Part shown: one piece after another, positions 5,702 through 52,044 of the stretch
Position numbering within the stretch: the first letter of the stretch is position 1
How the letters are laid out: the number at the start of each line of letters is the position of its first letter
Assembly: GCA_965263275.1 (NCBI GenBank)
Contig: OZ253668.1
Span: 795,154-859,153 of the forward strand
Direction of reading: 5' to 3'
From: Thermodesulfobacteriota bacterium
GTDB taxonomy: Bacteria > Desulfobacterota_D > UBA1144 > Nemesobacterales > Nemesobacteraceae
Length of the DNA: 64,000 nucleotides
Notes under the pieces: model-generated
What the model saw: the letters and a program-made list of their open reading frames with translations, nothing else
Databases searched by the model: none
What the model was told of the DNA's origin: nothing
Program-made: the position numbers and the translations under genes

Positions 5702-5759
5702 AAAAATCCTTGATTCGTCTGCTTTCCCGGTAATTCATAAAACCGGTTTCAGACGGAGA

Positions 5760-8620: not shown

Positions 8621-8629
8621 GAGAGAGGG

Positions 8630-9181
8630 CTACTCCAGTTCGTCCCTTTTCCATCCCCTGCCGGTATCGACTCCCACAAGGCCTAAAAGTTTGTCCACAT
8701 ATCCGCTCACCACGTCCGAAATCGATTCGGCACCCATGTAGTCAGTCGGAGAAATCGGCGCGATCACGACTCCCTCGCGGGAGAGCCGCAGAGCGTTTTC
8801 AAGGGCGATTGTGCCAAGCGGGGTTTCCCGCAGGGCAATTATGAGCTTTCTTTTCTCCTTGAGCGCGACGGCCGCTATTCTGGTTATGAGTGTGTCGGCT
8901 ATGCCGTTTGCGATTTTCGCAAGCGTTGAAACCGAACAGGGCACTATGACCATGGAATCGAAATGGTTGCTTCCAGAGGAAAAAGGTGACGCCAGGTCGG
9001 AATCATTGTAAATATCGGTTACCCAGGGACGCATTTCCTCGACCTTGAGGCCGAGTTCCTCGTGAAGGACCCTCTTTCCCCATTTGCTTGCCACCAGATA
9101 TTTCTCATCGGGACATCTTCTTAGAAAATCAACCCCGTAAGCAACCCCTGAGGCCCCGGTAATTCCGACTATAGTTCTCAT
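8630..9181 (-). CDS. ubiX: flavin prenyltransferase UbiX
   Basis: 183 aa, MRTIVGITGASGVAYGV...VIVPCSVSTLAKIANG typical of UbiX/Pad1. Confidence 0.85.
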   Translation of the reverse strand: MRTIVGITGASGVAYGVDFLRRCPDEKYLVASKWGKRVLHEELGLKVEEMRPWVTDIYNDSDLASPFSSGSNHFDSMVIVPCSVSTLAKIANGIADTLITRIAAVALKEKRKLIIALRETPLGTIALENALRLSREGVVIAPISPTDYMGAESISDVVSGYVDKLLGLVGVDTGRGWKRDELE

Positions 9182-9184
9182 GGT

Positions 9185-10027
9185 TCAGGGTAAGTATATA
9201 CCCGCGAGGGTGAAAAACAAAACCGCAAACCCTATGAGAATATTGGTTCTGAAAAAAGCGGAATCCACCTGGCCGAAACTTCTGTGCTCAAGGTAAAGGA
9301 GGTACCCGCAAAGCGCTAGCGGCAAAAGCGCGAAGAAGGTCCGAAACGAAAGAAGGTACAGAAGAACAAGGGAAACGAACGAAAGCAGGTGAGCGATCCT
9401 GCAAACAAAAAGCGCCTTCTGTTTACCGAAACGGGCGACAAGAGAGAAAACACCGCGGCTGCGGTCAAATTCTTCGTCAGCGGTGGCGTATATTATGTCA
9501 AAGCCTGAAATCCAGAAAAAAGTGAAAAGCGAAAGTACGATTGCCGCGAGCATCTCATCAAAAGAGCACCTCACGGCAAGCCATCCGCCCAATGGGCCAA
9601 GCGCCAGAGAGAACCCGACGCCGAAATGACACAGGCTTGTGAATCTTTTCATCAGCGGATACACGGTAAATGCCACAAGCGGCAGCGGAGAGAGGAGAAA
9701 AACCAGCGGGCATATAAAATAAGCGGAGAGAAAGTAAAGCAGAGATCCCCCAACCGCTACCCCAACCGCTTCGTTCATGCCCATTCTGCCCGAGGGAAGC
9801 TCTCTTGCAGCGGTTCTAGGGTTTTCCCGGTCTATTTTCCGGTCGAAAATCCTGTTAAGCGCAAGGGCGACTGTCCGCGCTCCCGTGCCCGCAAGGATGA
9901 TAAGCACGAAAAGCCGGGCGCTGAAAATCCCGCCGGCGGCCAGAAAAGCCCCCGCGAAGATAACCGGAAGGGAAAAAAACGTGTGCTCTATTCTGAGAAA
10001 GCCCGAGAGGTTCTTTAAAAATGTCAT
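9185..10027 (-). CDS. UbiA-family polyprenyltransferase (MqnP or 4-hydroxybenzoate polyprenyltransferase-like)
   Basis: 280 aa multi-TM protein with NRIFDRKIDRENPRTAARELPSGRM (UbiA Asp-rich motif region). Confidence 0.8.
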   Translation of the reverse strand: MTFLKNLSGFLRIEHTFFSLPVIFAGAFLAAGGIFSARLFVLIILAGTGARTVALALNRIFDRKIDRENPRTAARELPSGRMGMNEAVGVAVGGSLLYFLSAYFICPLVFLLSPLPLVAFTVYPLMKRFTSLCHFGVGFSLALGPLGGWLAVRCSFDEMLAAIVLSLFTFFWISGFDIIYATADEEFDRSRGVFSLVARFGKQKALFVCRIAHLLSFVSLVLLYLLSFRTFFALLPLALCGYLLYLEHRSFGQVDSAFFRTNILIGFAVLFFTLAGIYLP

Positions 10028-10270: not shown

Positions 10271-10962
10271 ATGGAAACATTTGAAGCGCTGATTTTAAGA
10301 AAATCCAGTTACGGGGAAGCCGATCTTCTGGTAACGCTTTTCTCAAGGGAATCCGGAAAATTCAGGGCGCTTGCCAAAAACGCGAAAAAAAGCCGGAAGC
10401 GCTTCGGAGGACGACTCGATTTCTTTAACCGTCTCTCAATTGACGTAACTCTGAACAAAGGAAGATTCAATCTCATCGGGGACGTGACCTTAAAGCAAAC
10501 CTACAGGGATATAGCGGAATCGGTGGACTCTTTCGCTACGGCAACCCGCGTTCTTGAACTTGTGGATTTCCTCATTCCCGAACAGGAACCCGCAAGCGAG
10601 TTGTTCGACCTCGCCGCAGACACTCTGGAACTTCTCTCAAAAAAATGGGAACCGTATTCCGTTTTCCTCGTTTTCCTCCTCCGCGCGCTAACTCTTTGCG
10701 GCTACAGACCCGATTTGCGTTTTGACAAGGGAAAAGACATTGCGGGTTTTGACGTGGAAAACGGGAGGGTCTGTAACCTCGAGAAACTCAGAGTAAAAGA
10801 AACGTTTATCACTTTCACATGGACATAATGAGACGTCCAGAAATCATGGATAAAAACCCTGAGAAAGTAAAGAACAACATACGGGTTCTCACGAGATACA
10901 CCGAATACCTTACCAGCAAGCGTCTTGGGAAAAGCGATTTTGCGGGTGAGACCGCAACATGA
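10271..10962 (+). CDS. recO: DNA repair protein RecO, interrupted by a frameshift at about 10805 in this sequence
   Basis: ORF 10271..10828 carries the RecO N-terminus (ALILRKSSYGEADLLVTLFSRESGKFRALAKNAKKS). The C-terminal continuation (...MRRPEIMDKNPEK...KRLGKSDFAGE) is in the +2 frame up to 10962. The shift lies at a T-run (cgtttatc). Confidence 0.6.
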
Positions 10963-14926: not shown

Positions 14927-16810
14927 ATGGGCACTGAACTGCACATAAGAGACAACATCGAGCAATCCTATGGCGACGTGTACACGCCAGAGGCGCTCGC
15001 GGCCCTTGAATTCATGGCCCGCTTTAACGGGGAACAGAAGGCGATTATGGAGAAAAGGACGCAAAGAAGGAAAAGACGCTATGAGTCCGGTGAGAGAATA
15101 ACGTTTCTTGATCCCGATTCCCTGATCCCGCGTACCAACATCAAAGTCCAGGACGCGAGGGACGGGAAATTCGAGGGAGCAGAGATTCCCCATGATCTCA
15201 AAAGACAGTGGATACAGGGAACGGGCCCTGCTGCCAAACCGAACTCGCCTGTTGAAAAAAGCATAAGAAACGTTGCCTACGCTCTTCTCTCGGGCGCCGA
15301 CGGGTGGATGTTCGACGGAGAGGACGCCCTCGGACAGATCTCCACGATGTCCCTTGACAACCAGCGAAACCTCAAGCTCGCCATCGCAAGAGACGAGGTC
15401 TTCATGAAAACAGCCGAGGCGGTAGCCGGAGAGATGAACAGGTGGGGACAGAGCTTCTTCGGACATGACATAATAGACGACTGGGAAAAGCAGCTTGACT
15501 TCACTACCGTTATTTTCCGTGCCAGGGGACTTCATCTCGACGACCGGCACATACGCAACGCTGACGGCGTAGCTCTTTCCGCTTCCGTAGCCGACATGAC
15601 TCTGTTTGTGGTGAACAACTACAGGGAGCTTGCGAAAAGAAACTCTTCCATAGTTCTTTACCTGCCCAAGATTCAGACCGCGGAGGAAGCGGCGCTTTGG
15701 AACGAGATGCTGACGGCTCTTGAGAGCCATCTCGGACTTCCCGAAGGGTCCATAAAGGTATACGTGCTGATAGAGCAGCTTGAGGAAACGTTCCAGCTTA
15801 TGGAAATCAGGGCCGCTTTGGGAAAACACTTCGCTGGATTTAACACCGGCAGGTGGGATTACATAAACAGCGTTTCGGACGCCATGGCGTGGGACAAGGA
15901 TTTTCTGAATCCGAACATAGAGTCGATCACCATGACCTACGGTTACATGAGAAACTACGAAGACCGCGTGAGAAGAGCGGTGAATACGCCTGATATAAAC
16001 GGAAAGTTCGCGCTCTGGCAGGGAGGGATGGAACCGAACATCCCAGTGGGGTCAAAAGAGGGCGTTCAAAGCAGCATGGAAAAAGCGTACGCAGGAGCCG
16101 TGCGCGAACAGCAGGAAGGAGCCAGCGGTAAATGGGTAGCCCATTGGAAAATGGTGCACATAATAAGGCCCGTATGGGAAAAAACAGGCGAGGAAAACCA
16201 GCTCGGAAGAGAGTTCCCTCCCCTGACCTATACCCAGGAAGACGCAGACGGCCTTACCCTTCTTGAACCGGCTCCAAGAACGATAAGAGGAGCCCGCAAC
16301 CTGCTCAGCGTGGGGCTTCAGTACGGAAACGCTTTCGGACAGGGCTTCCAGGCCGCGGCGCTAAAACCCGCGGATTTCTTCGGCAACGACGACATTCTTT
16401 ACCTGATGGAAGACGCCGCGACCGGAGAGATAAGACTGAGCATACTCTGGGAATGGGTCCACAAAGGAGCAAAGCTCACCGAGGACGACCCGGAAACCGG
16501 ACTGAAAGCGGGGGATGTGTTCACCATCGAGGTTTTCGAGAGGCTTCTTGAGGAAGAATACGAAAAACTGCAGAAAGCAAGTGACAGAGACGTCCATGAC
16601 ATCTCGAAACCCACCACGCTTCCGATAGCGAAACAGATAGTGAGAACTTATGTGCTTGACGACGTTAAGGTACCGTGGTACATAGACCTTCTCAACATAA
16701 ACCTAAACAACCACGATCACGATATAGCCGCGCAAAGAATCGAACTCTACATGTCGGAGTTTGCGGGCAAAGATAAGAGAATCACCGAGAATCTGGATTT
16801 TGTAATTTAG
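14927..16810 (+). CDS. malate synthase
   Basis: 627 aa. KHFAGFNTGRWDYI closely matches the PROSITE malate-synthase signature. It sits directly upstream of isocitrate lyase. Confidence 0.85.
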   Translation: MGTELHIRDNIEQSYGDVYTPEALAALEFMARFNGEQKAIMEKRTQRRKRRYESGERITFLDPDSLIPRTNIKVQDARDGKFEGAEIPHDLKRQWIQGTGPAAKPNSPVEKSIRNVAYALLSGADGWMFDGEDALGQISTMSLDNQRNLKLAIARDEVFMKTAEAVAGEMNRWGQSFFGHDIIDDWEKQLDFTTVIFRARGLHLDDRHIRNADGVALSASVADMTLFVVNNYRELAKRNSSIVLYLPKIQTAEEAALWNEMLTALESHLGLPEGSIKVYVLIEQLEETFQLMEIRAALGKHFAGFNTGRWDYINSVSDAMAWDKDFLNPNIESITMTYGYMRNYEDRVRRAVNTPDINGKFALWQGGMEPNIPVGSKEGVQSSMEKAYAGAVREQQEGASGKWVAHWKMVHIIRPVWEKTGEENQLGREFPPLTYTQEDADGLTLLEPAPRTIRGARNLLSVGLQYGNAFGQGFQAAALKPADFFGNDDILYLMEDAATGEIRLSILWEWVHKGAKLTEDDPETGLKAGDVFTIEVFERLLEEEYEKLQKASDRDVHDISKPTTLPIAKQIVRTYVLDDVKVPWYIDLLNINLNNHDHDIAAQRIELYMSEFAGKDKRITENLDFVI

Positions 16811-16849
16811 ATTCTCGAAGAAAACAATATTTTTTAGGAGAGCAGACTC

Positions 16850-19123
16850 ATGAGCCAGTTTGAAGCTGAGATAAGGAAAACGAAAAGGTATTTTTCAAGC
16901 GTGCGCTTCAAAGGAATAACCCGTCTCTACTCCCCCCGACAAGTAGTGGAGCAGAGAGGAACCATAAGAAGGGATTATTCGATCGCGAAAAACGCGGCGG
17001 AGAATTTTTACAAAAGACTCCGGGAGCTATTTTCCCAGAAAAAGCAGATAACGTCCTTCGGTCCGTACTCACCCGGCCAGGCCGTTATGATGAAAAGAAA
17101 GGGGATTGAGGCAATCTATCTTGGCGGATGGGCCACGTCGGCAAAAGGCTCAATGAACGAGGACCAGGGAGCGGATCTCGCAAGCTATCCACTAAGCCAG
17201 GTACCTGACGAAGCGGCTCCAATAGTAAGAGCCCTTCTGTCCGCGGACAAGAACCAGAGATACAACCGCTCCAGAATGACGGAGAAGGAAAGGGCTCGGA
17301 CACCGCAGATTGATTACAGCCCCTTCATAGTTGCGGACGCGGACACCGGGCACGGGGGCGACGCCCATGTGAGGAACCTTATCCGCAGGTTCGTTGAAGT
17401 AGGCGTAACAGGTTGTCACATCGAAGACCAGAAACCCGGAACCAAGAAATGCGGTCATCAGGGCGGAAAGGTTCTAGTACCTTCTGACGAACAGATAAAA
17501 AGACTAAACGCGGCAAGGTTTCAGCTCGATATCATGGAAGTGCCGGGGATAATAGTTTCAAGAACCGACGCCGAAGCCGCGGCACTTCTTGACGGAAACG
17601 GGGATGAGCGTGACCAGCCGTTTACTCTGGGAGCCACCAAGCTTAATATCCCAAGTTACAAAAACACTTACCTGACAATCCTTAAAAGGATCAATGAAAA
17701 GGGCGTAAAAGAGATAAACGGTCACAAGCTCTATAAAATAAGCGACGAGACCTACGCGGACACTGACAAGTGGCTCGAAAAGGTCGGAATAGCGTCGTTT
17801 ATAGACGAGAGCGTGGAGAAAATGAAAGGGGATACGCATGAGTTTGAAACCGTTTTCGATTCCATAGTTACCAATTTCGTCAAGACATGGGAAGAGGAAT
17901 CCGGGTTGAGCACTTTCGGCGAAACGATAGAGAAACTGATGCAGTTTAATATTGAGCAGGGCATTGAGTTTGACATGAGTGTCGAGCAGTGGAAAGAGTT
18001 TGCCAAAACCGCGTCGACAAAAGACGCAATGGCAAAAGCTGATTCCATGGGAATTGACTATATATGGGACACCGAGATCTCAAGGACTCCCGAGGGATAT
18101 CATCAGGTAAAAGGGGGAATCGAGTACGCAATCGCCAAGTCGCTTGCCGTAGCGCCTTTTGCCGACCTGCTCTGGATGGAAACCAAAACGGCGGACATAG
18201 AGGATGCCAGGCAGTTCGCAGACGCCATCCACGAAGTCTTTCCGAACAAGATGCTGGCCTATAACCTGTCCCCCTCCTTTAACTGGGATACAACGGGAAT
18301 GACCGACGAGGAAATGAAGAAATTCCCCGAAGAGATAGGAAAGCTCGGCTTCGTGTTTGATTTCATAACCTACGGTGGTCATCAGATTGACGGTATGGCC
18401 GCAGAAGAGTTCGCAACGGCGCTTCAGGAAGACGGCATGCTGGCCCTGGCTCGGGTACAGAGAAGACTAAGGCTCATAGATTCGCCTTACAAAACTCCGC
18501 AGAGCCACGTCGGAGGACCCCGCATGGACGGAGCGCTTGTGGCAAGCTCCGGCAGAACCGCGACGACAAAAGCCATGGGCAAGGGTTCCACCCAGTTCCA
18601 GCACCTGGTCCAGACGGAAATTTCCATCAAGCTTCTCGAAGAATGGCTTGAGTCTTGGACAAGGCACTACAAGATCAAGGACAGTTTCACCGTTGAACTC
18701 AAGCCCCACACCGTGGGAACGTTCGTGCTTGAACTGAACATTCTAAACGGCAAGGGCGAGAAGGTAGCGGACATCATATTCGAAATTCTGCAGGACAGAA
18801 AGGGAGAAAAAATACTTACGATAAGGGATGAGAACAATTTTGATACTGCTCTTCGCCAGAAACGTCTCGCCACCCTGCTCCATCTGTTCCTCATTCATCG
18901 CTACAAAACGGACTTCGTACATTACGTAAGTCCCACGGATGATAACCTGATGCAGACCAAGGGAATGATGAGACTCGGGATTTACGAATCGGTCAACACC
19001 GAAGTCGGTCATATAATAGTGACCAAGGTAAACGTCGATTACGTAAAAGAGTTACTGAGTCCCGACCGCAGGGAACTGAAAAAGCTTATAGCGAAGAAAA
19101 CCAAATCCCGTAAAAAGAAATAA
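16850..19123 (+). CDS. aceA: isocitrate lyase, long (ICL2/AceAb-like, about 757 aa) form
   Basis: [16 protein letters not shown] signature, with a large inserted and C-terminal region as in the ~766 aa mycobacterial ICL2. RBS AGGAG is 7 nt upstream. Confidence 0.9.
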
Positions 19124-19160
19124 AGAGATCCTAAATTGAATAGAATCTCTTTTCGTACAT

Positions 19161-19195
19161 GCTCAAGGCGAAAAACAACGCTTTTTGCCTTGAGC
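19161..19195 (+). terminator. stem-loop downstream of aceA (putative terminator)
   Basis: Perfect 9-bp inverted repeat GCTCAAGGC...GCCTTGAGC (17-nt loop) about 40 nt after the aceA stop. A second shorter hairpin AAGAGAT...ATCTCTT sits at 19127-19155. Neither is followed by a U-tract. Confidence 0.35.
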
Positions 19196-19477
19196 TGTAA
19201 CCGTCTTTGTCTGGGTCTTTTGCGATATCTCCCTTGCTGATGAAATCTCGCTGCTCAATGACCACGCCCCTATAGGAGTTATGAGCGACCATACTCACAA
19301 AGCAGGTGAATGGATGGTCTCCTACCGCTACGGTTTCATGAAAATGGACGGAAACGGCTACAGCTTCACAGTCGGCTGGCAGATGTCAATCTGAAAACGA
19401 GATTCGATTAAAGAACCCTGCGATTGACATAAAAACCCAGAGAACTCTCCGTCAGCCATCATTCCGGAGCGGAGAGC

Positions 19478-19515
19478 CTTACGGTTTCAAGGAAAAAAAC
19501 CGTAAAATATATTTT
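19478..19515 (+). terminator. hairpin plus T-rich tract (rho-independent-like terminator) after the orphan small ORF
   Basis: TTACGGTTT-caaggaaaa-AAACCGTAA perfect 9-bp stem, followed by AATATATTTT. Confidence 0.35.
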
Positions 19516-19580
19516 CGTAGTAATCAATACCAAAAACTGTATCCTAATTTATTCAGAACAGAGGCGACTCAGCACGTCTC

Positions 19581-20983
19581 TTGAGAAAACACGTAACCGA
19601 GAGTGACGCAATGCCGGTAAACGTCAAAAAAACCTTAAAGAGAATAGACAGGGCTCTTGAGAAGGGAAACTGGGATGCCGTGAGAAGCATAACCCAGTCC
19701 ATGCACCCCCTCCGAAATAGCATCCCTGATACAGGCTTCTCCACAGGGGAAAAAGCATCTTATACTGGAGGCCCTGGACACGGAAGTAGCCTCCGAGGTC
19801 TATTTTCAGCTAAACCCCGAGGAACGCGTAAGCATACTGAAGCTTATGCGGGAAACATCCATAACCGCGATGACCGAAGAGATGGAATCGGACGATGCCG
19901 CCGATTTCCTGGAGAACTGCCGGAAGCTCTGGCGGAGACGGTTCTCAAGACCATGGACCCGGAAGAACGCAAGGACGTAACGCCGCTTCTCAAGTACCCG
20001 GAAGATTCCGCGGGCGGATCATGCAGACCGAGGTCCTTAGAAGTTCCCACGACGCCACTTCGAGAGAAACCGTCGAACTTATAAGAAAAATCGAGAAGGA
20101 AGATGAAGAAGACGTAGAGGACCTGCACATGGTCTACGTGGTGAACGAAACGGGAAGGCTCGTCGGAAGGGTTTTTCCGCTTAAGCTCTCAACGGCGGCA
20201 GCTGATTCTCCCCTTTGGACTATCATGGATCCGGTCGAGGTAACGCTCACTCCGAACATGGATCAGGAGGAAGTGGTCAAGATCTTCAGGAAATACGATG
20301 AGATGTCGCTTCCCGTGCTGGATGATTCCGGCGTGCTGCTCGGCAGGATAACCGCCGACGACATACTTGACGTTATCTCAGAAGAGGCAGGGGAAGACAT
20401 ATACAAACTCGGTGGAATAAGCGGCGAGGGACTGCACCCCATACACACATCCATATACGACAACGTGAGGCTGAGAGCGCCCTGGATAATGCTTGCTCTT
20501 GTTGGAGAGCTCTTCGTGGCGTTCATGATAATGCAGAAGTTTCAGACCACGCTTGAGAATTTCATCATTCTCGCGGCACTGCTTCCCCTGGTTATGGCCA
20601 CGGGCGGAAACGTCGGAGTTCAGACAAACACCATCACCGTCAGGATCATAGCCACCGGTGATTTCGTGATGAACCAGATAAAAGGCCTTCTTCTGGCGGA
20701 ACTCAAAGTGGGGCTGACTCTCGGGATCATAAGCGGTATTCTGGGTTCTCTGCTTGGAATTTTGCTAAATACAGCGGACATAGATTTCGTAAGGCTGTTT
20801 CTCGTAATATTCGCAGGAATTGTCGGAGCCACGCTCACAACTTCCTTTCTGGGCGTTGCAGGCCCTGTTCTACTTAACAAACTCAAGATGGATCCCGCAG
20901 TATCATCAGGACCATTTCTCGTTACGTTTAACGATATATTCGGTACCGCTTTCTACCTGTTTCTAGGTGCCGCACTGCTGTGA
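19581..20983 (+). CDS. mgtE: magnesium transporter MgtE, disrupted by three single-base indels in this sequence
   Basis: MgtE sequence is distributed over three frames: N domain in frame of 19581, PSEIASLIQ...DDAADFLE in another frame, LPEALAETVLKTMDPEERKDVTPLLKYPEDSAGG back in frame 0, then IMQTEV...CBS domains and the TM domain in the frame of 19895. Indels lie at C5 (about 19706), a G-run (about 19912) and about 20017. Confidence 0.8.
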
Positions 20984-26183: not shown

Positions 26184-27049
26184 TTGGAAAATTCTTCTTT
26201 CTTTCTAAACAGCATTCTTCCCGGGATATGGTTTTTCATGCTGGGGGCGGCGCTTGGAAGCTTCGCGAACGTCTGCGTGAGGAGAATTCCGGCGGGGGTC
26301 TCCGTCATCTCTCCCCGCTCCCGCTGCAATAGCTGCGAAACCCCCATCAGGGCTTTTCACAACATTCCCGTTTTAAGCTGGGTTTTCCTCGGGGGCAGCT
26401 GTTCCTACTGCAAAGAGCGGATATCTGTCGAATATCCGATTGTGGAACTTCTATGCGGAGTACTTGCGCTTTTTCTCTACAGGGAGCTTGGAGTCTCGCT
26501 TGAGCTGTTTTTCTACCTCGCGCTTTGCGTATCGCTTGTTGTTATAACCCTGATAGACATAAGACATCTTATTATTCCCGACATGATAACGCTGCCGGGA
26601 ATAGCTGGCGGGATTGCGCTTAACGCGATCAGAACCGACTGGGGGACGGCGACAGATGTGCTTTTTTCTTCCGGGTTCGCGAACTTTCTGCCTGCAACAG
26701 CGAATATCGCGATTTTAAATTCCATAGGGGGAGCGCTGCTTGGAGGAGGAACTTTTTACTGATCGCTACTCTGTACAAAACAGTTAGAAAAAGAGAAGGA
26801 ATGGGAATGGGTGACGTCAAGCTTGTTTCAATGCTGGGCGCTTTCTTTGGAATGTGGGGAGTGCTGATCATAATATTTCTAAGTTCCATTCTGGGAACCC
26901 TGATAGGACTGTCGGTTATAATACTGCGCAGAAAGGACCCGGGACACGCTATTGCCTACGGTCCTTTTCTTTCCTTCTCGGCTGTGTTGTATCTGCTCGG
27001 AGACAAACTTTTTCTCCTCCTCGGAATAAACATCGGGCCCCTTGGGTAA
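26184..27049 (+). CDS. pilD: type IV prepilin leader peptidase (A24 family, PilD), frameshifted at about 26757
   Basis: N-terminal GSFANVCVRRIP and CNSC...CSYC zinc-binding motif. The downstream part GMGDVKLVSMLGAFFG (catalytic Asp region) is in another frame and rejoins across a T5 run. Alternative start at Met 26238. Confidence 0.75.
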
Positions 27050-33907: not shown

Positions 33908-35305
33908 TCAACGGATCATATCCGCATAAATTTTTCTGGCCGCAAGTTCTGCTGAACGCACACAATCGGGAATTCCAACACCAGAATAGGCAGCTCCGCA
34001 AAGAGCAAGTCCCGAGTGGTGGGAAAGCCTGTGCATAACCCCTGAGATTTTTTCCTTATGTCCCAGCGCATAACGCGGCATGGACATCGGATATCTCCTG
34101 ATATGAGTTTCCGTCGGAGAGTTGTCACATCCGAATATTCTCGAAAGTTCCTCCATCAAAACGGCCTTTATCCTCTCCTCGTCCCAAAGAACCGCTTCGG
34201 GGTTAAGTTCTCCGCCAAAAAAACACCTGACCACAACTTTGTCGCTTCCGGATTTCTCAGGGAACTTGCTGCTGTATAACGAACACGCCACAAGATTCAT
34301 TTTCTCCACAGAAGGAATTATAATCCCCAAACCATCGGGAAGACCGCGGAAATCCTTTTCATCGAAGACAAGACTCGCGACAACGGAAGAGACATAGCGC
34401 ACATTTGAGAGTTCGGCTCCGAGCCGCGGATCAACATCAGAGAGCAGCAGCCCCGCCGTATCGGCGCGGGTGGACAGAACTACGGCGTCAAACTGTTCCT
34501 CTCCACGGTCAGAACCAAGAAGCCATCCCTTCCCCGATTTCTTAAGGGACAAGACCGCAGTCTCAAAATCCTGTCTCGCAAATTCGGCGCTTTCGCGAAG
34601 TTTCTCAACGATAACGGACATCCCCTGAGCGGGAGTTAAAAAAAGGCCGTACCTGGCACCACTTTCACCACGGGAGGTGGGAGGATTACGAAGAAGATCC
34701 CAAAGAACGCTTCCGCTTCGCTTCTCCATTTCAAGGAACTGTGGCATGGTGGACGAAAGACTGAGCTTGTCCGGGTCGGCCATGTAGATTCCGCCTAGAA
34801 GAGGCTGCGCGGCCTTGTCAAAAATTTCCCTTCCGAATCTCCTTTCCACAAACGAAGAGACGCTTTCATCCTCTCCGCCGCCGCGCGGAACCAGGGGTTC
34901 AAGAAGCACCCTAAGTTTGGCTCCGGCGCTGAACAGCCCGCAGCGCAGGAAGGGCAGAAGCTTTGAGGGAGCCATGAGAAAAAAACCTTCGGGAAGTGCT
35001 TGCAGCTTCCCGCCGTGATATACAAACGTGTTTTTCCCGCTGCCGTAACCCACTCCGAGGAGCGAATTCTCAAGTCCCAGTTCTTTTGCAAGATCAAGCG
35101 CCCAGGGCTTTGACGTTATGAAGGAGTCGGGACCAAGTTCAAGAACCATATCCCCCTTTTTTACAGTATCGAAAACCCCGCCCAGGCGGTTTGAGGACTC
35201 AAAAAGAACAAGTTCGAGAGGAACACTCTCCTCCCGGCAAAGCTTTCTCAGATAATGGGCAGAGGAAAGACCCGAGATCCCTGCGCCGACAATCGCGACT
35301 TTCAT
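33908..35305 (-). CDS. hemY: FAD-dependent protoporphyrinogen/coproporphyrinogen III oxidase (HemY family)
   Basis: Rossmann dinucleotide motif VAIVGAGISGLSSA. The 465 aa length is PPOX/CgoX-like. It is last in a hemE-hemH-hemY cluster. Confidence 0.75.
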   Translation of the reverse strand: MKVAIVGAGISGLSSAHYLRKLCREESVPLELVLFESSNRLGGVFDTVKKGDMVLELGPDSFITSKPWALDLAKELGLENSLLGVGYGSGKNTFVYHGGKLQALPEGFFLMAPSKLLPFLRCGLFSAGAKLRVLLEPLVPRGGGEDESVSSFVERRFGREIFDKAAQPLLGGIYMADPDKLSLSSTMPQFLEMEKRSGSVLWDLLRNPPTSRGESGARYGLFLTPAQGMSVIVEKLRESAEFARQDFETAVLSLKKSGKGWLLGSDRGEEQFDAVVLSTRADTAGLLLSDVDPRLGAELSNVRYVSSVVASLVFDEKDFRGLPDGLGIIIPSVEKMNLVACSLYSSKFPEKSGSDKVVVRCFFGGELNPEAVLWDEERIKAVLMEELSRIFGCDNSPTETHIRRYPMSMPRYALGHKEKISGVMHRLSHHSGLALCGAAYSGVGIPDCVRSAELAARKIYADMIR

Positions 35306-35320
35306 ACCGAACTATCTTAC

Positions 35321-36262
35321 TTATTGCTGGGAGTTTTCTGAATTGAAGAGTCTCAGCACCCCGTCACCGAGGGCCATTATGTAGCGGTCATCATCGTTCA
35401 CAGTCTCGGCCCTGTGCAGGTTCACTCCGCACTCGCGCGCGGCCTCGCTGGCCTCAACCCCTATATCGAAAAGCACTTCAATATGATCGCACACAAACCC
35501 TATCGGCTGAACCACAATGTCGGTGAAACCCTGGTCAGCGAGATTCCTTATCACATCGCATATGTCCGGCTCAAGCCACTTTTCGTTCGGAGAGCCGCTT
35601 CTGCTTTGATAGGCGGTCATCCATTTTTTGTGCCCGGCTCCGTCTGCCACCAGCATGGCGGAAGTTTCAAACTGCAAGGCATAGGGGGATGAATCCGACA
35701 TTTTCTGCGGAATGCTGTGAGCGGTAAAGACGAGCATAGTGGTATCAAGCCTGTCCGCGGGAATCTCGCGCAGACATTCGATGACCTTGCCCGCAGAGCT
35801 CTCTATGAAAAAAGGATGATTGAAAAGCGGCGGGACGTATTCCACGTGAAGCTCCATCCTGAGATCTTCGCAAGCCTCGCTTACATCCCTCATGTATCTC
35901 TCCCAACTCGCATCGGAGCGGTAAACGGCCATTATGAGGCCTACGAGGTTTTTCACCCCATTTTCCCGCATGCTCTCAAGAGAGTCCTTAATGAACGGAT
36001 GCCAGTTTCTCATTCCGACGTAAACCGGAAGACCGTACCCGTGTTCCGAAAGAAGCTTCTCAAGTTTTTGAGCCTGCTTGTACGTGAATTCGTTCAGAGG
36101 AGATTTTCCGTCGAAGATTTCGTAGTGATGGGCAACTTCCCGCAGCCTGTCCTCGGGTATCGGTCTTCCGCCCGCTACATTTCTTAGAAAGGGCATTATG
36201 TCCTGTTTTTTCTCGGGGGCGCCGTATCCGATCATCATTATCGCGTCAAAATTTTTTGCCAT
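35321..36262 (-). CDS. hemH: ferrochelatase (or coproporphyrin ferrochelatase)
   Basis: 313 aa, MMIGYGAP...VFTAHSIP...QPIGFVCDHIEVLFD motifs of ferrochelatase. Confidence 0.9.
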   Translation of the reverse strand: MAKNFDAIMMIGYGAPEKKQDIMPFLRNVAGGRPIPEDRLREVAHHYEIFDGKSPLNEFTYKQAQKLEKLLSEHGYGLPVYVGMRNWHPFIKDSLESMRENGVKNLVGLIMAVYRSDASWERYMRDVSEACEDLRMELHVEYVPPLFNHPFFIESSAGKVIECLREIPADRLDTTMLVFTAHSIPQKMSDSSPYALQFETSAMLVADGAGHKKWMTAYQSRSGSPNEKWLEPDICDVIRNLADQGFTDIVVQPIGFVCDHIEVLFDIGVEASEAARECGVNLHRAETVNDDDRYIMALGDGVLRLFNSENSQQ

Positions 36263-36274
36263 ACAGCTTTTCTC

Positions 36275-38236
36275 CTAAATACCTGTTCCCGCGGAGTACT
36301 GGTGAACTTCATCAATCAGCCTGAGAACATTGTCAACCGGTGTCTGCGGCAGTACTCCGTGACCCAGGTTGAATATGTGGCCGGGCTTCCCTCCTACCCT
36401 GTCCAGTATCTTCCTTGCCTCCTCAACGACGTGAGAGGGGGTTGAGAGCATAGAAACGGGATCAAGATTCCCCTGAACCGCAAGAGAGCTGCCGGCTCTG
36501 CGCCAGCCGTCAAGAATATCGACCCTCCAGTCAAGACCGATAACTCCAGCTCCGGTCCTCCCCATGAGTTCGAGAAGAGAGCCGGTTGCGGTCCCGAACA
36601 ATATTACCGGAACACCCGACGGGAGCGTGGAGATGAGTTTCTTTACGTGCGGAAAGATGAACTTTTCATAATCCGCAGGAGAGAGACAACCTACCCAGCT
36701 GTCGAAAATCTGCACTGCATCGGCCCCTGCTTCCACCTGAGCGCAAAGGTAGTCCGAAATGCTCGCGGTCAGAATTTCCATAAGCCTCTCCCACAAAGAA
36801 GGGTCCCCGTACATAAGCTTTTTCGTGTTGACGTAGTTTCTTGAGCCCCTTCCCTCAATCGCGTACGACGCTACGGTAAACGGAGCGCCGGCAAAACCCA
36901 GAAGCGAAACTTCGGGATCAAGCGCCTCTCTGGTAGTACGCACAGCCTGGTAGACAAAGTCCATGCTTTCCGGATGAAATTCTCTCAGGGCCTCTATGCG
37001 TTTTCGTGTTCGAAGGGGGTTGGCTATCACGGGACCGTCAACGCTTGAATACTCAAGCGAAAGCCCCAGGGGTTCCAGGATAAGCAGTATGTCGGAGAAA
37101 ATGATAGCCGCGTCCACGCCGAGTCGGTCAACCGTCATAAGCGTAATTTCCGAAGCTATGTCCGGGGTCTTGCAAAGCTCCATGAACGGAACGCGGGAGC
37201 GGACCTCTCTGTATTCCCGGAGAAACCTGCCCGCCTGGCGCATAAGCCAGATGGGAGTATGATCGGCTTTCTCGAGCCGGCACGCCTTCATAAACGCCCC
37301 CGCGGACGTAATTTCGCTTCTTCGGGCCCGCGTGCCGTCCCCAGACCAGACCATCTGCGTACGGCTCCAGTTTCGGGTATCGACACCGTTTTGAAAGGCG
37401 GTTCTTTTTTTCGCCAGAAGCGCCGCGGACCTTCTGGCCGTCTCTCTCACCAGATTTCCCATTTTCGGGCTGTCGGGCTCATAGTCAACGGATATTCCGT
37501 TTCCTCTAAGCGTTTCGGTAGTGGATGGTCCGATTGAACATATAAGAGCTTTTTTCATCCCCTCCATAAATTCAGTGGCACACTCGTGCGTACCTGCCAC
37601 CTCAAAAAGATTGGATACCTGCCGGGAACTTGTGAACAGCAGACAATCCTCAGCGCCCTCGGATATGGACCTTACCGCGTCCTGCAGGGGACCCAGATCC
37701 TCCGGCAGCGCCCATCTGTAAATTGGAATTCTTCTTACGTCCGCCCCTCTTTTTTCAAGGGAAGCGAGAAATTCTTCATTGGAAACGCCGTATTCCTGAA
37801 CATACACGACCAGGTCTTCAAGCGACATGTCCCTCTGGTCAAAAGTGGAGAGTATATCCCTCCACGTGTTCGGTTCAGAAACGGTGATATCAGGCCTCAT
37901 GCCGAATCTGCGAAGGGCCGCGACGGGTTTCGGACCTCTTGTGAGAATCGTTGTTGAGCGCAGAGCCTCAACATACTCTTTTTCCCCGGACTCCTCGATT
38001 ACCATGTCGGAGAGAATTCGGGTTCCCACCCCAGTCATCAGAATAAGCATATCAACGTTGCCGGAGAAAAGGTCATCAGCAAACCTGACAACGTAAGGAC
38101 TTTTCAGATCAGGGACTTCCCTCATCGAGGGCGCGACCCTGGGGACACCGCCGTGATAAGAGATAAGTTTTTTCATCTCCTCACAGCGACGACTTTCAAA
38201 AGACGTCACCTTAAGTCCGTTAAAACCCTGTTTCAT
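36275..38236 (-). CDS. hemE: apparent bifunctional uroporphyrinogen-III synthase (HemD, aa 1 to about 275) / uroporphyrinogen decarboxylase (HemE, aa about 316-653)
   Basis: N-terminal HEM4/HemD-like domain, then PIWLMRQAGRFLREY (URO-D signature 1) and the full HemE domain. About 35-residue non-conserved linker contains an A7/T7 homopolymer at 37405-37411. Confidence 0.8.
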   Translation of the reverse strand: MKQGFNGLKVTSFESRRCEEMKKLISYHGGVPRVAPSMREVPDLKSPYVVRFADDLFSGNVDMLILMTGVGTRILSDMVIEESGEKEYVEALRSTTILTRGPKPVAALRRFGMRPDITVSEPNTWRDILSTFDQRDMSLEDLVVYVQEYGVSNEEFLASLEKRGADVRRIPIYRWALPEDLGPLQDAVRSISEGAEDCLLFTSSRQVSNLFEVAGTHECATEFMEGMKKALICSIGPSTTETLRGNGISVDYEPDSPKMGNLVRETARRSAALLAKKRTAFQNGVDTRNWSRTQMVWSGDGTRARRSEITSAGAFMKACRLEKADHTPIWLMRQAGRFLREYREVRSRVPFMELCKTPDIASEITLMTVDRLGVDAAIIFSDILLILEPLGLSLEYSSVDGPVIANPLRTRKRIEALREFHPESMDFVYQAVRTTREALDPEVSLLGFAGAPFTVASYAIEGRGSRNYVNTKKLMYGDPSLWERLMEILTASISDYLCAQVEAGADAVQIFDSWVGCLSPADYEKFIFPHVKKLISTLPSGVPVILFGTATGSLLELMGRTGAGVIGLDWRVDILDGWRRAGSSLAVQGNLDPVSMLSTPSHVVEEARKILDRVGGKPGHIFNLGHGVLPQTPVDNVLRLIDEVHQYSAGTGI

Positions 38237-38279: not shown

Positions 38280-39545
38280 CTATAGGAATTCCGCAATGCT
38301 CTCGGCTTTCAGCATATCCTCTAGAGTCTCCCTGGCCCTTATCTCGCAGTATCTTTCACCGCTTACAAGAACTTCTGCCGCCCGGGGCCTCGTATTGTAA
38401 TTCGACGACATCACGAAACCGTAGGCTCCCGCGCTGAAAACCGCAAGCAGTTCGCCCGCGGAAACCGCGGGAAGACTTCTGTCTCTGGCCAGAAAATCTC
38501 CCGATTCGCATATGGGACCTACTATATCCACCACCCCGCAGGACTCAGAATCTCCCCCGCGCACCGGTTCTATCCGGTGAAAGGAATCGTAAAACGCGGG
38601 TCTCACAAGATCGTTCATCGCGGCGTCAACTATTACGAATTTCTTTGAAGTTCCCTCTTTAATATAAAGCACCTTGGTAGCCATTATTCCCGCGTTGCCC
38701 ACCATTGATCTTCCGGGTTCAAGGACCAGCCTGTAACCGGTATCGCGAAGATGTTCCTCAAAAACTTGCGCGTACTCAGATTTCGCCGGAGGTTTTTCCC
38801 CGCTCTCGTAGCTTATCGCCAGCCCCCCTCCTATATCTATGTAGGAGATTTCAATCCCGTCGCTCCCAAGTCTGTCAGCAAGATAAACCAGCTTTGATAT
38901 GGACTCGGAAAAAGAGGAAAGATCAAATATCTGGGAACCTATATGGGCATCAATTCCCCTTATCTCAATTCCCTTCATCCGCGAGGCGTCTCTGTAAACA
39001 TCCATCGCTTTTTCGATTCCGATTCCAAACTTGCTTTTCTCAAAACCCGTTGATATGTACGGATGTGTATCGGGATTAATATCAGGATTCACCCTTATCG
39101 CAACCGGAGCCTTTTCCCCGATGGAAACGGCCACATCGTTTATATTTTGAAGCTCCGCTTCGGACTCCACGTTGAAAAAAAGTATCCCGGCGCGAAGTGC
39201 GGCTTCTATTTCCTCTTCGGTCTTTCCGACTCCCGAGAATACCACTTTCGAGGGGTCTCCCCCCGCGGCAATCACCCTCCGCAATTCCCCCGACGAGACG
39301 ATATCGAAACCGCTGTCCATGGAGGAGAAGATCTTCAGTACGGATATATTTGAGTTCGCCTTAACGGAATAGCAGATCAGGGGATCGATTTCACAAAACG
39401 CCTGCTTATATTCAAGGAAGCTTGACCTGATGTAATTGTGGCTATAGATATAGATGGGAGTGCCCAGATTCTCGCATATCTCTCGCACCGGAACTTTTTC
39501 CACGTAAAGTTCGCCGTTGGTATATTCAAAATCGAAAGTCATCAT
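38280..39545 (-). CDS. lysA: diaminopimelate decarboxylase
   Basis: GTPIYIYS...CYSVKAN (PLP Lys region)...EPGRSMVGNAG...CESGD motifs. The track ORF extends to 39653, but conservation begins at MMTFDF (Met37). Confidence 0.9.
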   Translation of the reverse strand: MMTFDFEYTNGELYVEKVPVREICENLGTPIYIYSHNYIRSSFLEYKQAFCEIDPLICYSVKANSNISVLKIFSSMDSGFDIVSSGELRRVIAAGGDPSKVVFSGVGKTEEEIEAALRAGILFFNVESEAELQNINDVAVSIGEKAPVAIRVNPDINPDTHPYISTGFEKSKFGIGIEKAMDVYRDASRMKGIEIRGIDAHIGSQIFDLSSFSESISKLVYLADRLGSDGIEISYIDIGGGLAISYESGEKPPAKSEYAQVFEEHLRDTGYRLVLEPGRSMVGNAGIMATKVLYIKEGTSKKFVIVDAAMNDLVRPAFYDSFHRIEPVRGGDSESCGVVDIVGPICESGDFLARDRSLPAVSAGELLAVFSAGAYGFVMSSNYNTRPRAAEVLVSGERYCEIRARETLEDMLKAESIAEFL

Positions 39546-39688
39546 ATAAGTCCCCGCAGGTTTGAAGGTAGAAAATTTACCCGAAAAAAACAGTGGAAAA
39601 CAATTACCGACCCCGCATCCGACTGAAGTTCTCAAGCTCCCGGACATAAGCAATGATGAATGAAGTAAACTCCCCCCTTCAAATTTTG

Positions 39689-40860: not shown

Positions 40861-41790
40861 TTGAACTCTCTTAAAGACTTGGTAACAAGGTTTTTCATAC
40901 TCTGGATAATACTGTTTTCGGCTGTTGCGTACTTGTTTCCCTCCGTTTTTGAAAATCTCGGTTTCCTCATAGTTCCCATGCTCGCTGTGATAATGTTCGC
41001 GATGGGCATAACCCTCAGGACCGATGACTTCAGGAGGGTTTTTTCAAGACCGCTTGAGATCCTGGCGGGGATTTCCGCTCAGTACGTCGTGATGCCTTTT
41101 CTGGGTTTCATCCTCGCCCTTGCGTTCGGGGTAAGCCCTTTGATTGCTGCGGGGGTCGTTCTTGTGGGTTCGTGCCCCGGGGGAACCGCATCAAACGTGA
41201 TCACTTACCTGGCAAGGGGCGACCTGGCGCTTTCAGTAACGCTTACGTCGGTTTCAACACTCCTGTGCCCGTTTCTGCTGCCCGCACTAATGTACGTTTA
41301 CGCGGGAAGGTGGATAGACGTTCCGATGGTCGATCTTTTCATCTCGGCACTTCAGATAGTACTGCTGCCGGTACTTCTGGGAGTGATTTCAAGAAAAATG
41401 CTCGGGAGAAAATTAGAGACGGTCCTGCCTTTTCTACCCTCCTTATCGTCTCTGGTGATAGCGCTTGTGGTAGGAATAATCGTGGCTTTGAACGCAGAAT
41501 CCATAAAAACCATCGGCGCGGTAGTTTTCCTTATCGTAGTTATTCATAACACTCTGGGTCTTGCGTGCGGTTACCTTATAGCGAAGGCGCTGGGTTTCGG
41601 AGAAAGCAGCGCCAGGGCGATATCCATAGAGGTGGGAATGCAGAACTCGGGGTTAGCGGCGGCTCTTTCCCAGTTGCATTTCGGTTATCTCTCCGCACTT
41701 CCCGCGGCGCTTTTCAGCATCTGGCATAATATCTCGGGCGGAGCGATAGCGTGGTTATGGAGAAACAGCAGCATTCATGAACAAAACTGA
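40861..41790 (+). CDS. bile acid:sodium symporter (BASS/SBF) family transporter
   Basis: 309 aa polytopic membrane protein, GSCPGGTASNVITYLARGD signature region. Confidence 0.65.
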   Translation: MNSLKDLVTRFFILWIILFSAVAYLFPSVFENLGFLIVPMLAVIMFAMGITLRTDDFRRVFSRPLEILAGISAQYVVMPFLGFILALAFGVSPLIAAGVVLVGSCPGGTASNVITYLARGDLALSVTLTSVSTLLCPFLLPALMYVYAGRWIDVPMVDLFISALQIVLLPVLLGVISRKMLGRKLETVLPFLPSLSSLVIALVVGIIVALNAESIKTIGAVVFLIVVIHNTLGLACGYLIAKALGFGESSARAISIEVGMQNSGLAAALSQLHFGYLSALPAALFSIWHNISGGAIAWLWRNSSIHEQN

Positions 41791-47881: not shown

Positions 47882-48799
47882 CTATCTATGTTTTGAAGAA
47901 GATTCTGAAAGGACATTTACCAGCAGGTCGTGCTGCTTTCTGTGCTTATCAGGGTTTGTGTCTCGTAGTTTCTTCAAATTCTGAAGCTTCCACTGAACTG
48001 CTGGAAATTGTTCAAAGTCATAAAGACTCCAATCAGGTTCAGCATTGTCAGCACGTAAAAGAAAATCCTTGTCTTCGTCAGTAAGAGACACATTTATCAT
48101 CCAAATTAGTTTATTTCTAGCTTTTTCGTATTCCTCGTAGGAGAAAGGTTCACGTGACATGCCTTCAAATTGGTTCTCAAAGATATCTCTTTGGTCTTGC
48201 GGTCGCGGGGCAAGCAATTCATACATCGGCCTGTCACTACAAAGCAGACCGTATAAAAAACCACGTTTTATGTCATTGAAAAAACCTTCTTGATCCATAA
48301 GCGGACTTAAGTCAAAAAAATCTCTGGGGTGCTGTCGATCCAGGGCCGCACAGACCTTGCCACCATAGAGTTGGCTTGTTGGCACCAAATGCATCGCACA
48401 AAACGTATCAAACTCTGATTGCGCACTTTGGCAGAGCTCTAATTGTTCAGGAGGCGCAATAACACCCCGTTTTACCATGTTCACTTCAATTTTTGTTTGT
48501 GCACCTGAGCGAGAGATAAAAAGCTTGCAGACATTTTGTTGATGAACAACCTGCATGCCTCTCTTTTTTGATTCAATACCACTTTTTATTCTGCTTAACC
48601 CTTGATTGATATTATTCAAAGATGTATCCCTGTCTTCAAGCGGCACATAGGTTAAATCAATGTCAACGGACAGACGTGGCATCTCACGCACGAAAAAATT
48701 AATTGCCGTACCACCATGGAGCACAAAGCAGGATTGCTTTGCCACCTCAGGCAAAACTTCAAGCAAAAGTTCCACCTGTTCTTTATAGTCCTGTCTCAT
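47882..48799 (-). CDS. abiEii: nucleotidyltransferase AbiEii/AbiGii toxin-family protein (type IV TA / abortive-infection component)
   Basis: 305 aa, LHGGTAINFF...RLSVDIDLTY pattern of the AbiEii (DUF1814) family. Located in a low-GC island. Confidence 0.65.
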   Translation of the reverse strand: MRQDYKEQVELLLEVLPEVAKQSCFVLHGGTAINFFVREMPRLSVDIDLTYVPLEDRDTSLNNINQGLSRIKSGIESKKRGMQVVHQQNVCKLFISRSGAQTKIEVNMVKRGVIAPPEQLELCQSAQSEFDTFCAMHLVPTSQLYGGKVCAALDRQHPRDFFDLSPLMDQEGFFNDIKRGFLYGLLCSDRPMYELLAPRPQDQRDIFENQFEGMSREPFSYEEYEKARNKLIWMINVSLTDEDKDFLLRADNAEPDWSLYDFEQFPAVQWKLQNLKKLRDTNPDKHRKQHDLLVNVLSESSSKHR

Positions 48800-49568
48800 T
48801 GCTCTTTGCTTCTAATTCCTTAGGAACAGTGATTTGATACTTTGGCACATAAACACCATTAGTCAGAAGACTTCGTTTGCCTTTGCCCAAATCGATTTTT
48901 TCTAAATCCAGAAAATTAAACCAGTCATGCTCCGCTTTCTCGCTCATATACAAAAAAAGCCGCTTCACTTTCACCGAACGGCACTGCTCAAGCAATGTCT
49001 GCACTTGGGCAGGTCTTAAATTGTTAAGTCCCTCCATCAACTCAAAGGCCTCAAGCAAAGACTGCTTTTCAGGCGCAAGATAAAGGCATTCCATTAGTGC
49101 TCGCGCAGCCCCGGACACATTGACGGAAAAAGTTTTCAGTTCAACGCTGGTCAGTCCCAGTTGTGGGGGAAGAAAGGAAGATGCGCGGTAGTAAACATCT
49201 AACTCCCAATCATACTTCTTAAACCAAAGGGGTAATCTTTCGCTAGCATGACCAAATAATATTGCCCGTTTCGGGGACAATTCAAGATAATGGGATTTAC
49301 CGAGCAATGATAAAGCAGTTCGACCACCAGGGTGAACACTTAAACCTTGCTGTTTTTGCAGGGCATAGACCGCACCCAAATAATCAACTTCGTCTCCCGC
49401 ACGGACCATAGCACCCGCACCTATTGATTCAAACCAATAACTGCGTCGATAGCGTTTCTGAAGATCCAGGCTGTAACCCCGCTCTGCCAGCCATGGTGAC
49501 AAGAGTACAACTCCTCTAGGTACAGTCCTTAAGAGTCGGTTTATTTTAGAATTATTTTGGGTACTCAT
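48783..49568 (-). CDS. abiEi: AbiEi antitoxin-like transcriptional regulator
   Basis: 261 aa, winged-helix-like N-terminal region. It lies immediately upstream of the AbiEii gene, which it overlaps by 17 nt, the usual AbiEi/AbiEii pairing. Confidence 0.55.
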   Translation of the reverse strand: MSTQNNSKINRLLRTVPRGVVLLSPWLAERGYSLDLQKRYRRSYWFESIGAGAMVRAGDEVDYLGAVYALQKQQGLSVHPGGRTALSLLGKSHYLELSPKRAILFGHASERLPLWFKKYDWELDVYYRASSFLPPQLGLTSVELKTFSVNVSGAARALMECLYLAPEKQSLLEAFELMEGLNNLRPAQVQTLLEQCRSVKVKRLFLYMSEKAEHDWFNFLDLEKIDLGKGKRSLLTNGVYVPKYQITVPKELEAKSNETGL

Positions 49569-51319: not shown

Positions 51320-51838
51320 ATGAAGAATTCCAAAAAAATACTAATCATTGCCGGACCCAACGGCGCTGGAAAAACTACATTTGCCGCGGAGTTCCTTCCT
51401 AACGAGGCTCGCTGTCCGACTTTCATAAACGCAGACCTGATAGCGGCGGAACTTAACCCGCTTCAACCGGATCTAGCGGCAATTCAGGCTGGCAGGCTGA
51501 TGCTGAAGATGATTCACGACTGCGTGGAAAAAGAGGAGAGCTTTGCCTTTGAGACCACCCTTAGTGGACGTATCTACACACGCATGATTCCCCTTTGCCA
51601 AAAAGAGGGTTACCTAATAAAACTGCTATTCTTGAGATTACCGATACCGGAAATGGCTATAGCCCGTGTCAGGCAGCGGGTCCTAGAGGGAGGACATGAT
51701 GTACCGGAACAAACAATCCGTCGCCGGTTTCATTCCGGGTGGGACAATTTTCAGTTAGTTTATAAAGATATGGTGGATGATTGGAAAGTGTACGACAGTT
51801 CCGGAGGCATCCCTATACTCATCGAGCAGAAGGATTGA
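51320..51838 (+). CDS. zeta-toxin-like P-loop kinase (AAA-family ATPase, Zeta_toxin domain)
   Basis: 172 aa, ILIIAGPNGAGKTT Walker A...FINADLIA...SFAFETTLS pattern typical of short zeta-toxin/UNAG-kinase-like proteins. Confidence 0.5.
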   Translation: MKNSKKILIIAGPNGAGKTTFAAEFLPNEARCPTFINADLIAAELNPLQPDLAAIQAGRLMLKMIHDCVEKEESFAFETTLSGRIYTRMIPLCQKEGYLIKLLFLRLPIPEMAIARVRQRVLEGGHDVPEQTIRRRFHSGWDNFQLVYKDMVDDWKVYDSSGGIPILIEQKD

Positions 51839-51840
51839 CT

Positions 51841-52044
51841 ATGGCTACGCAGAAACAACAAGGTTTAGGTCAGGATAAGGAATTGTGGAATCAGGATTTG
51901 GTTGGTGCGGAGGCGGCGATGCTAAGAGCCGCCAAGCTAGCATGTAGCAGGGCCATAGAAACCACTGGTTCGGTAGCTATTTTCAGGGATGGCGAGATCG
52001 TCTGGGAAAAGGATATAAGAAAAATTTTCCCGGAGGATAACTAA
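51841..52044 (+). CDS. small hypothetical protein (67 aa) immediately downstream of the zeta-like kinase
   Basis: The ATG at 51841 overlaps the stop of the kinase gene (TGACTATGG). No recognised domain. The track ORF 51781..52044 has a longer upstream start inside the kinase gene. Confidence 0.25.
   Translation: MATQKQQGLGQDKELWNQDLVGAEAAMLRAAKLACSRAIETTGSVAIFRDGEIVWEKDIRKIFPEDN

Follow-up and report, generated by a model that had tools for sequence, protein, structure and literature searches.

Comparative evidence for a conserved fusion of uroporphyrinogen-III synthase and uroporphyrinogen decarboxylase in a Thermodesulfobacteriota genome

We analysed a 64,000-nucleotide (nt) stretch of a Thermodesulfobacteriota bacterium genome (GenBank assembly GCA_965263275.1, contig OZ253668.1, positions 795,154 to 859,153; hereafter the window), in which one minus-strand open reading frame (ORF; 36275-38236, 653 codons plus stop) covers, in a single reading frame of 653 amino acids (aa), the domains of both HemD (uroporphyrinogen-III synthase, U3S) and HemE (uroporphyrinogen decarboxylase, UROD). 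A Pfam scan placed HEM4 (PF02602) at aa 20-263 (E = 3e-35; 121.7 bits, gathering threshold 27.5; profile positions 2-230 of 231) and URO-D (PF01208) at aa 314-647 (E = 1e-122), and the hemE equivalog TIGR01464 scored 399.8 bits against a cutoff of 302.95 (profile positions 2-338 of 338). The ORF call, Pfam and TIGR01464 thus bear out a first-pass annotation, made from the sequence alone, which had described a 653-aa ORF with a HemD-like domain followed by HemE. Pfam returned HEM4 and URO-D only: SUMT (TP_methylase), porphobilinogen deaminase and HemX domains were not found in the protein, and the match to NF005411 (HemD/HemX) spanned 67 residues at 24 bits (cutoff 414). The coordinates of the gene, its parts and its neighbours are collected in Table 1.

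Table 1 Features of the fused hemD-hemE gene and of neighbouring haem and lysine genes (window positions).
Feature	Positions	Strand	Basis and remarks
Fused hemD-hemE gene (hemDE)	36275..38236	-	Single ORF; Pfam HEM4 + URO-D; 120 listed homologues
HemD (uroporphyrinogen-III synthase) part, aa 1-282, with its long C-terminal helix (259-282)	37391..38236	-	Pfam, PDB, Foldseek, AlphaFold2
A7 run, codons 276-278 (AAA AAA AGA = Lys-Lys-Arg); plus strand reads T7	37405..37411	-	Sequence
Conserved junction segment, aa 283-297 (NGVDTRNWSRTQMVW)	37346..37390	-	Alignment, pN/pS, AlphaFold2
Short variable segment, aa 298-312	37301..37345	-	Alignment, pN/pS, AlphaFold2
HemE (uroporphyrinogen decarboxylase) part, aa 313-653 plus stop	36275..37300	-	Pfam, TIGR01464, PDB, Foldseek
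ATG of Met316, internal residue of the first HemE helix	37289..37291	-	Alignment of homologues
hemH (ferrochelatase)	35321..36262	-	TIGR00109, 169 bits (cutoff 124.6); 12 nt downstream of hemDE
hemY-type protoporphyrinogen/coproporphyrinogen oxidase	33908..35305	-	TIGR00562, 256.8 bits (cutoff 97.85); 15 nt downstream of hemH
lysA (diaminopimelate decarboxylase)	38280..39653	-	TIGR01048, 508 bits; 43 nt upstream of hemDE
hemB	101-1024		Same 64-kb window

We then compared both parts with proteins of solved structure. Against PDB sequences, the HemE part matched UROD chains with E values of 1e-82 to 1e-66, and the HemD part matched the U3S of Thermus thermophilus (3d8n/1wcw) with an E value of about 1e-7. 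An AlphaFold2 model built on a 73-sequence alignment reached a predicted local distance difference test (pLDDT) score of 90.8 and a predicted TM-score (pTM) of 0.83. In Foldseek comparisons, the HemE part of the model superposed on 3cyv, 2inf, 2eja and 1r3q with TM-scores on the target (TMt) of 0.90-0.94 and root-mean-square deviations of 1.4-2.1 A, as a (beta/alpha)8 UROD fold, and the HemD part matched 1wcx (TMt 0.75), 3re1 (0.68), 4es6 (0.65) and 1jr2 (0.63), as a two-lobed flavodoxin-like U3S fold; the lower TMt of the HemD part is expected from hinge motion between the lobes. Six HemE residues are invariant over the 73 sequences, namely R333 and R337 (MRQAGR), D382 (IFSDIL), Y458, S513 (FDSW) and H626 (NLGHG), which, by motif matching only, presumably correspond to Arg37, Arg41, Asp86, Tyr164, Ser219 and His339 of human UROD. 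Similarly, FTSSxQ (201-206) and TGVG (68-71) in the HemD part, which we take to be the usual HemD motifs, are invariant. No solved structure of a fused HemD-HemE protein was found in the PDB by sequence search or Foldseek.

The junction between the two parts received particular attention, as it holds a run of seven adenines on the coding strand. This A7 run (T7 on the plus strand) is present where the first-pass annotation had reported it, and deleting one A does yield the predicted layout, in which a 315-aa HemD-like product ends at a TGA overlapping the ATG of Met316 (ATGA). The run encodes Lys-Lys-Arg at aa 276-278, which is dominant over the 120 homologues listed, with conservative R/K swaps in a few of them (K277 invariant; K276 and R278 at least 90% conserved). 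Orthologues spell this tripeptide with runs of different length: AAG AAA AGA (A4) in locus L002, a chromosome-level record with 93% aa identity over the best matching segment; AAA AAG CGC (A5) in L164, L165 and L086; and AAA AAA CGC (A6) in L003, L082 and L085. The frame continues into HemE in every A4, A5 or A6 orthologue checked. An identical A7 was found in L001, an independent assembly with 99.0% DNA identity to the window over 21.7 kb (208 mismatches). Furthermore, A/T runs of at least 7 bases number 34 in the window, and the A7 in the junction is not statistically unusual.

Past the run, the homologues share a conserved motif, KKR[T/I]A..NG[V/I].T..W.R..M.W, in which G284, W290, M295 and W297 are invariant over the 73 sequences. 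Ratios of non-synonymous to synonymous differences (pN/pS; Nei-Gojobori, relative to L002 and L162, respectively) were 0.09 and 0.11 for aa 264-297, similar to those of the HemD part (0.10 and 0.12) and the HemE part (0.09 and 0.13), whereas aa 298-312 gave relaxed values of 0.32 and 0.49. This is the sole poorly conserved stretch, with length differences of 1-8 residues among homologues; the linker had earlier been described as non-conserved as a whole, but aa 276-297 form a conserved motif and just about aa 298-312 vary. In the model (junction pLDDT 80-95), the last HemD helix spans residues 259-282 and includes KKR, residues 283-300 have no regular secondary structure (pLDDT 83-93), and a short helix at 303-311 (pLDDT about 80) precedes the first HemE helix, which starts at 314. 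As modelled, the junction is a structured and conserved segment and not a floppy linker.

It had also been stated that HemE begins with a Met of its own. The HemE part aligns to Pfam and PDB entries from aa 313-316 onwards, positions that correspond to residues 8-18 of free-standing HemE chains, so that the free-standing chains in the PDB carry 7-17 extra N-terminal residues ahead of the aligned point, and the context of residue 316 reads FMKAC, FLKAC, FIKTC or FVKAC among homologues, with L, I or V in several. We therefore ruled out an internal start at Met316, a position that is not conserved as Met and lies downstream of where free-standing HemE begins. The peptide encoded in the frame that is one nucleotide shorter showed no conservation and is interrupted by stops in L082 and L086. 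Its stop falls at the same place in every orthologue with FMKAC; the ATGA is automatic, because it follows from the conserved Met-Lys codons (ATG AAR).

We investigated how widely the two-domain architecture occurs. HEM4 and URO-D were both present in each of the 120 listed homologues of the full protein (633-677 aa, 58-99% identical), in an alignment uninterrupted through the junction, which answers the earlier suggestion to look for fused HemD-HemE proteins in databases: many exist. Where a source is named, the listed homologues come from Candidatus Dadabacteria, Thermodesulfobacteriota or Deltaproteobacteria metagenome-assembled genomes (MAGs), and the named public records title the fused protein just "uroporphyrinogen decarboxylase". 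The exact window protein is present in public collections, where its 90% cluster counts 57 members spread over many contigs, and P0081 lies on 21 contigs, several of which Logan had assembled from publicly available runs. When one genome per GTDB species was scanned and the candidates were checked from stop to stop, single ORFs of 658-711 codons covering HEM4 and URO-D emerged in MAGs from many phyla (labelled Abditibacteriales, Acidimicrobiia, Myxococcales, Omnitrophota, Pirellulaceae, Planctomycetaceae, Planctomycetia, Acidobacteriota, Terriglobia and Binataceae). Roughly two dozen further fusions came from a scan of metagenomes, and an exhaustive search of 50%-identity cluster representatives gave about 20 full-length fused clusters, down to 33% identity.

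Using hidden Markov models (HMMs) built from the HemD and HemE halves, we classed 164 HemE loci as fused (44), adjacent and unfused (7), HemE alone with at least 900 nt available upstream (98), or HemE alone with the contig edge too near to judge (15). No stop codon separates HemD from HemE in the 44 loci classed as fused. Among the loci examined, every copy of this HemD subfamily that the HMM detected beside a strong HemE match was either fused or directly upstream of hemE, mostly overlapping its frame. Separate hemD and hemE genes with an ATGA stop/start overlap were seen in four distant relatives (L008, L030, L056 and L066); this layout is limited to those loci and does not hold for the lineage of the window. 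In distant fused lineages, the linker past the conserved K/R-rich helix end is variable and often rich in Ala, Pro and Arg, and the NGVDT..W.R..MVW segment was seen in the Dadabacteria-like clade and in L003. The fused protein of this last locus (JANWYM010000263, labelled Abditibacteriales) is just 52% identical to those of the Dadabacteria-like group, yet it has their clade-specific junction motif (KKRTAHAHGVDTLQWKRVDMVW), which could reflect horizontal transfer or a mis-binned contig. A nearest-neighbour identity table of HemE domains shows fused and unfused proteins interleaved (L003, for example, which is fused, is nearest to the unfused L018, at 70%), which hints at several fusion/fission events, or at transfer, in a table too crude for event counts.

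These results indicate, with a probability that we put at about 0.93, that the ORF represents a real fusion of two genes, conserved in evolution, and encodes one polypeptide with HemD at its N-terminus and HemE at its C-terminus. Three points weigh against this reading. The HemD part missed the cutoffs of the NCBIfam HemD equivalogs, the best being NF004584 (121.5 bits against 233), followed by NF005568 (115.6 against 273); since these models score under cutoff, the HemD identity rests on Pfam, fold and context. The assembly is not free of errors, since at least one other gene of the window has a real frameshift due to homopolymer length. Finally, the direct hand-over (channelling) of uroporphyrinogen III between the two parts is one that we purely infer.

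The shortfall against the NCBIfam equivalogs could mean that the ORF is real and its HEM4-like domain does not work as a U3S but binds substrate or has a regulatory role, a separate hemD lying in another part of the genome. HemD sequences are in general poorly conserved (no enzyme of the common tetrapyrrole pathway is less conserved than HemD), and the part studied here has 13-24% identity to the solved U3S structures compared. Against this stand a Pfam score far above the gathering threshold, the recovered two-lobed U3S fold, the invariant FTSSxQ and TGVG motifs and purifying selection as strong as that on HemE. Moreover, in 51 loci the subfamily either shares an ORF with hemE or directly precedes it, and no other HEM4 gene was found within the window. 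We consider a non-working HemD domain improbable.

Programmed slippage or phase variation at the A7 run, by which the cell could produce the fused protein or the two enzymes separately, was rejected on comparative grounds and is more improbable still. Seven adenines in Lys codons are a classic slippery sequence, and in the window the frame one nucleotide shorter is open as far as the ATGA; however, the homopolymer is not kept in orthologues (A4 in L002; A5 in L164, L165 and L086), the alternative-frame peptide is unconserved, and a HemE started at Met316, which is L, I or V in homologues, would be without conserved N-terminal residues.

The weakest alternative, that a true A6 run was misread and that a 315-aa HemD precedes a separate hemE, draws on the ATGA layout obtained by deleting one A, on the ATGA-overlapping genes of distant relatives and on the frameshifted prepilin peptidase and probably frameshifted mgtE genes in the same window, but this suspicion of the first-pass annotation is refuted on comparative evidence, namely the same frame under A4, A5 and A6 spellings, the identical A7 in the independent strain L001, conserved residues after the run with pN/pS of about 0.1, an alternative frame that is unconserved and stopped in L082 and L086, a Met316 not kept as Met, both Pfam domains in 120 of 120 listed homologues and the 57-member 90% cluster, and we give it almost no chance.

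The fused gene stands in a tight row on one strand, lysA-hemDE-hemH-hemY, with the gaps given in Table 1; the true start of lysA is probably near 39545, because its L001 orthologue was called at 421 aa. In all four orthologous neighbourhoods examined (L001, L162, L163 and L164), the gene after hemDE is hemH, and in three (L001, L162 and L163) hemY comes next. No hemC or cobA gene, and no further HEM4 gene, was found within the window. Scanning the operon for promoters and terminators turned up nothing beyond what shuffled sequence would give, and Rfam and tRNA scans of the window gave four tRNAs only, none close to hemDE.

The 653-aa product is most likely a bifunctional enzyme, encoded within the lysA-hemDE-hemH-hemY row. 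From domain identity, the HemD part would cyclise hydroxymethylbilane to uroporphyrinogen III, the HemE part would remove its four acetate carboxyls to give coproporphyrinogen III, and the products of the adjacent hemH and hemY would carry out onward steps to haem. The chain would run from the last HemD helix, ending in KKR, through the conserved Trp/Met-rich segment and the short variable stretch into the first HemE helix. Such a fusion would fix a 1:1 ratio and co-locate both activities, and its benefit may be that uroporphyrinogen III is handed directly to the haem branch. Uroporphyrinogen III oxidises readily, and the routes to sirohaem and B12 branch off from it; because of this branch point, a HemD-HemE fusion would favour the haem branch. 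The genuine fusion considered earlier is supported as to gene structure and sequence conservation; its enzyme activity and channelling we infer. The fusion probably arose from hemD and hemE genes that were translationally coupled through an ATGA overlap, and this layout is plausible as its ancestor. We further propose, tentatively and with more doubt than confidence, that this HemD subfamily is an obligate physical partner of HemE, that the Dadabacteria-like Trp/Met-rich junction fixes the geometry of the active sites, and that direct transfer of uroporphyrinogen III commits the branch to haem. If this were so, the small genomes of this clade would be expected to have neither a free HemD nor a sirohaem/B12 branch.

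We compared the fused protein with known systems. Stand-alone HemE (TIGR01464, PF01208; 2inf from Bacillus subtilis, 1r3q from human) corresponds at full length, and above the equivalog cutoff, to the C-terminal 340 aa here, which, in contrast, have no start codon of their own and are covalently joined at their N-terminus to HemD via the conserved segment. Stand-alone HemD (PF02602; 1wcw and 3d8n from Thermus thermophilus) shares the two-lobed U3S fold and the whole-profile Pfam match, whereas the HemD part studied here belongs to a divergent subfamily and its C-terminal helix, ending in KKR, runs into HemE. The coupled pairs in L008, L030, L056 and L066 have the same HemD subfamily directly upstream of hemE, with a HemD tail ending just past the K/R-rich helix end, but these are two ORFs in different frames, whereas the window and its whole clade have one. 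Fusions of CobA (SUMT) with HemD and of HemC with HemD have been described, and uroporphyrinogen III is listed as one of the unstable intermediates whose neighbouring enzymes are prone to fusion (Henry et al. 2016, PMC4921024, Table 3); HemD-HemE is absent from that table. CobA-HemD, HemC-HemD and HemD/HemX (NF005411) follow a common logic, in which HemD is joined to a neighbouring enzyme of the pathway where the intermediate, a porphyrinogen or bilane, is unstable. CobA-HemD feeds the sirohaem/B12 branch, whereas the partner here is HemE, the consumer on the haem branch, making the two arrangements mirror images. A 2026 Chem Rev review on haem (PMC13564367) mentions HemH-HemQ as the only fusion, and no description of a HemD-HemE fusion was found in the literature searched, the coverage of which did not include the Dailey et al. 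2017 MMBR review.

Several further features of the window were observed. Homopolymer indels had been reported in several other genes, and this holds at least for the prepilin peptidase (a T5 run against a 6-base run); mgtE also looks frameshifted. The prepilin peptidase gene (26184-27049, plus strand) is interrupted at a T5 run (26753-26757), which leaves two ORFs of 192 aa and 82 aa; in L001, 99% identical, the run has 6 bases and the gene is intact, and a one-base insertion in the window restores a single ORF. Either the homopolymer was misread in sequencing or the gene is truly a pseudogene. The mgtE ORF (19124-20983, plus strand) has just 362 aa and lacks the MgtE_N region, and the 771 nt upstream of it hold MgtE_N-like peptide pieces in two other frames (e.g. 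EEMESDDAADFLE); A7 runs are present at 19493 and 19626, and the gene probably carries two or more frameshifts. The recO gene (10271-10828, plus strand; A7 runs at 10385 and 10639) has just 185 aa, with a RecO_C match that ends at profile position 70 of 157, and may be truncated or frameshifted. An SBF-family transporter is intact in the window (40861-41790, 309 aa), broken in L001 (6507-6947, a 146-aa call) by +1 and -2 indels, and also fragmented in L163 (123 aa).

A Zeta-toxin/AAA_33-like ORF of 172 aa and an 87-aa ORF in a different frame overlap each other (51320-52044, plus strand), with an A7 run at 51332, and the region may be another frameshift or a small toxin module. An AbiEii toxin/AbiEi antitoxin pair (type IV, abortive-infection type) was found at 47882-49568 on the minus strand, just past the end of the L001 alignment (47947). 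A glyoxylate-shunt pair (14927-19123, plus strand) consists of a malate synthase (627 aa) adjoining an unusually long isocitrate lyase (ICL; 757 aa, two ICL stretches). Between msrA and the ubiD-ubiX-ubiA cluster (6845-10027), a region of 1143 nt (5702-6844) has no ORF of at least 80 aa and no Rfam or tRNA match.

The comparison of the junction indicates that a homopolymer within an unusual fusion can be resolved via the synonymous spellings of orthologues, even where the assembly has real homopolymer errors. The HemD-HemE architecture is plentiful in sequence databases, yet it is named after its HemE half only and is under-annotated in uncultured bacteria of many phyla. HemD is often reported missing from genome reconstructions. 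The haem pathway of Dadabacteria, Binatia, Planctomycetota and other uncultured lineages could be wrongly scored as incomplete, which is possible since HemD is hidden inside a protein named "uroporphyrinogen decarboxylase". Furthermore, the fused protein offers a natural single-chain system for testing the channelling of oxidation-prone uroporphyrinogen III, and the fusion is probably useful both for annotation and for channelling experiments.

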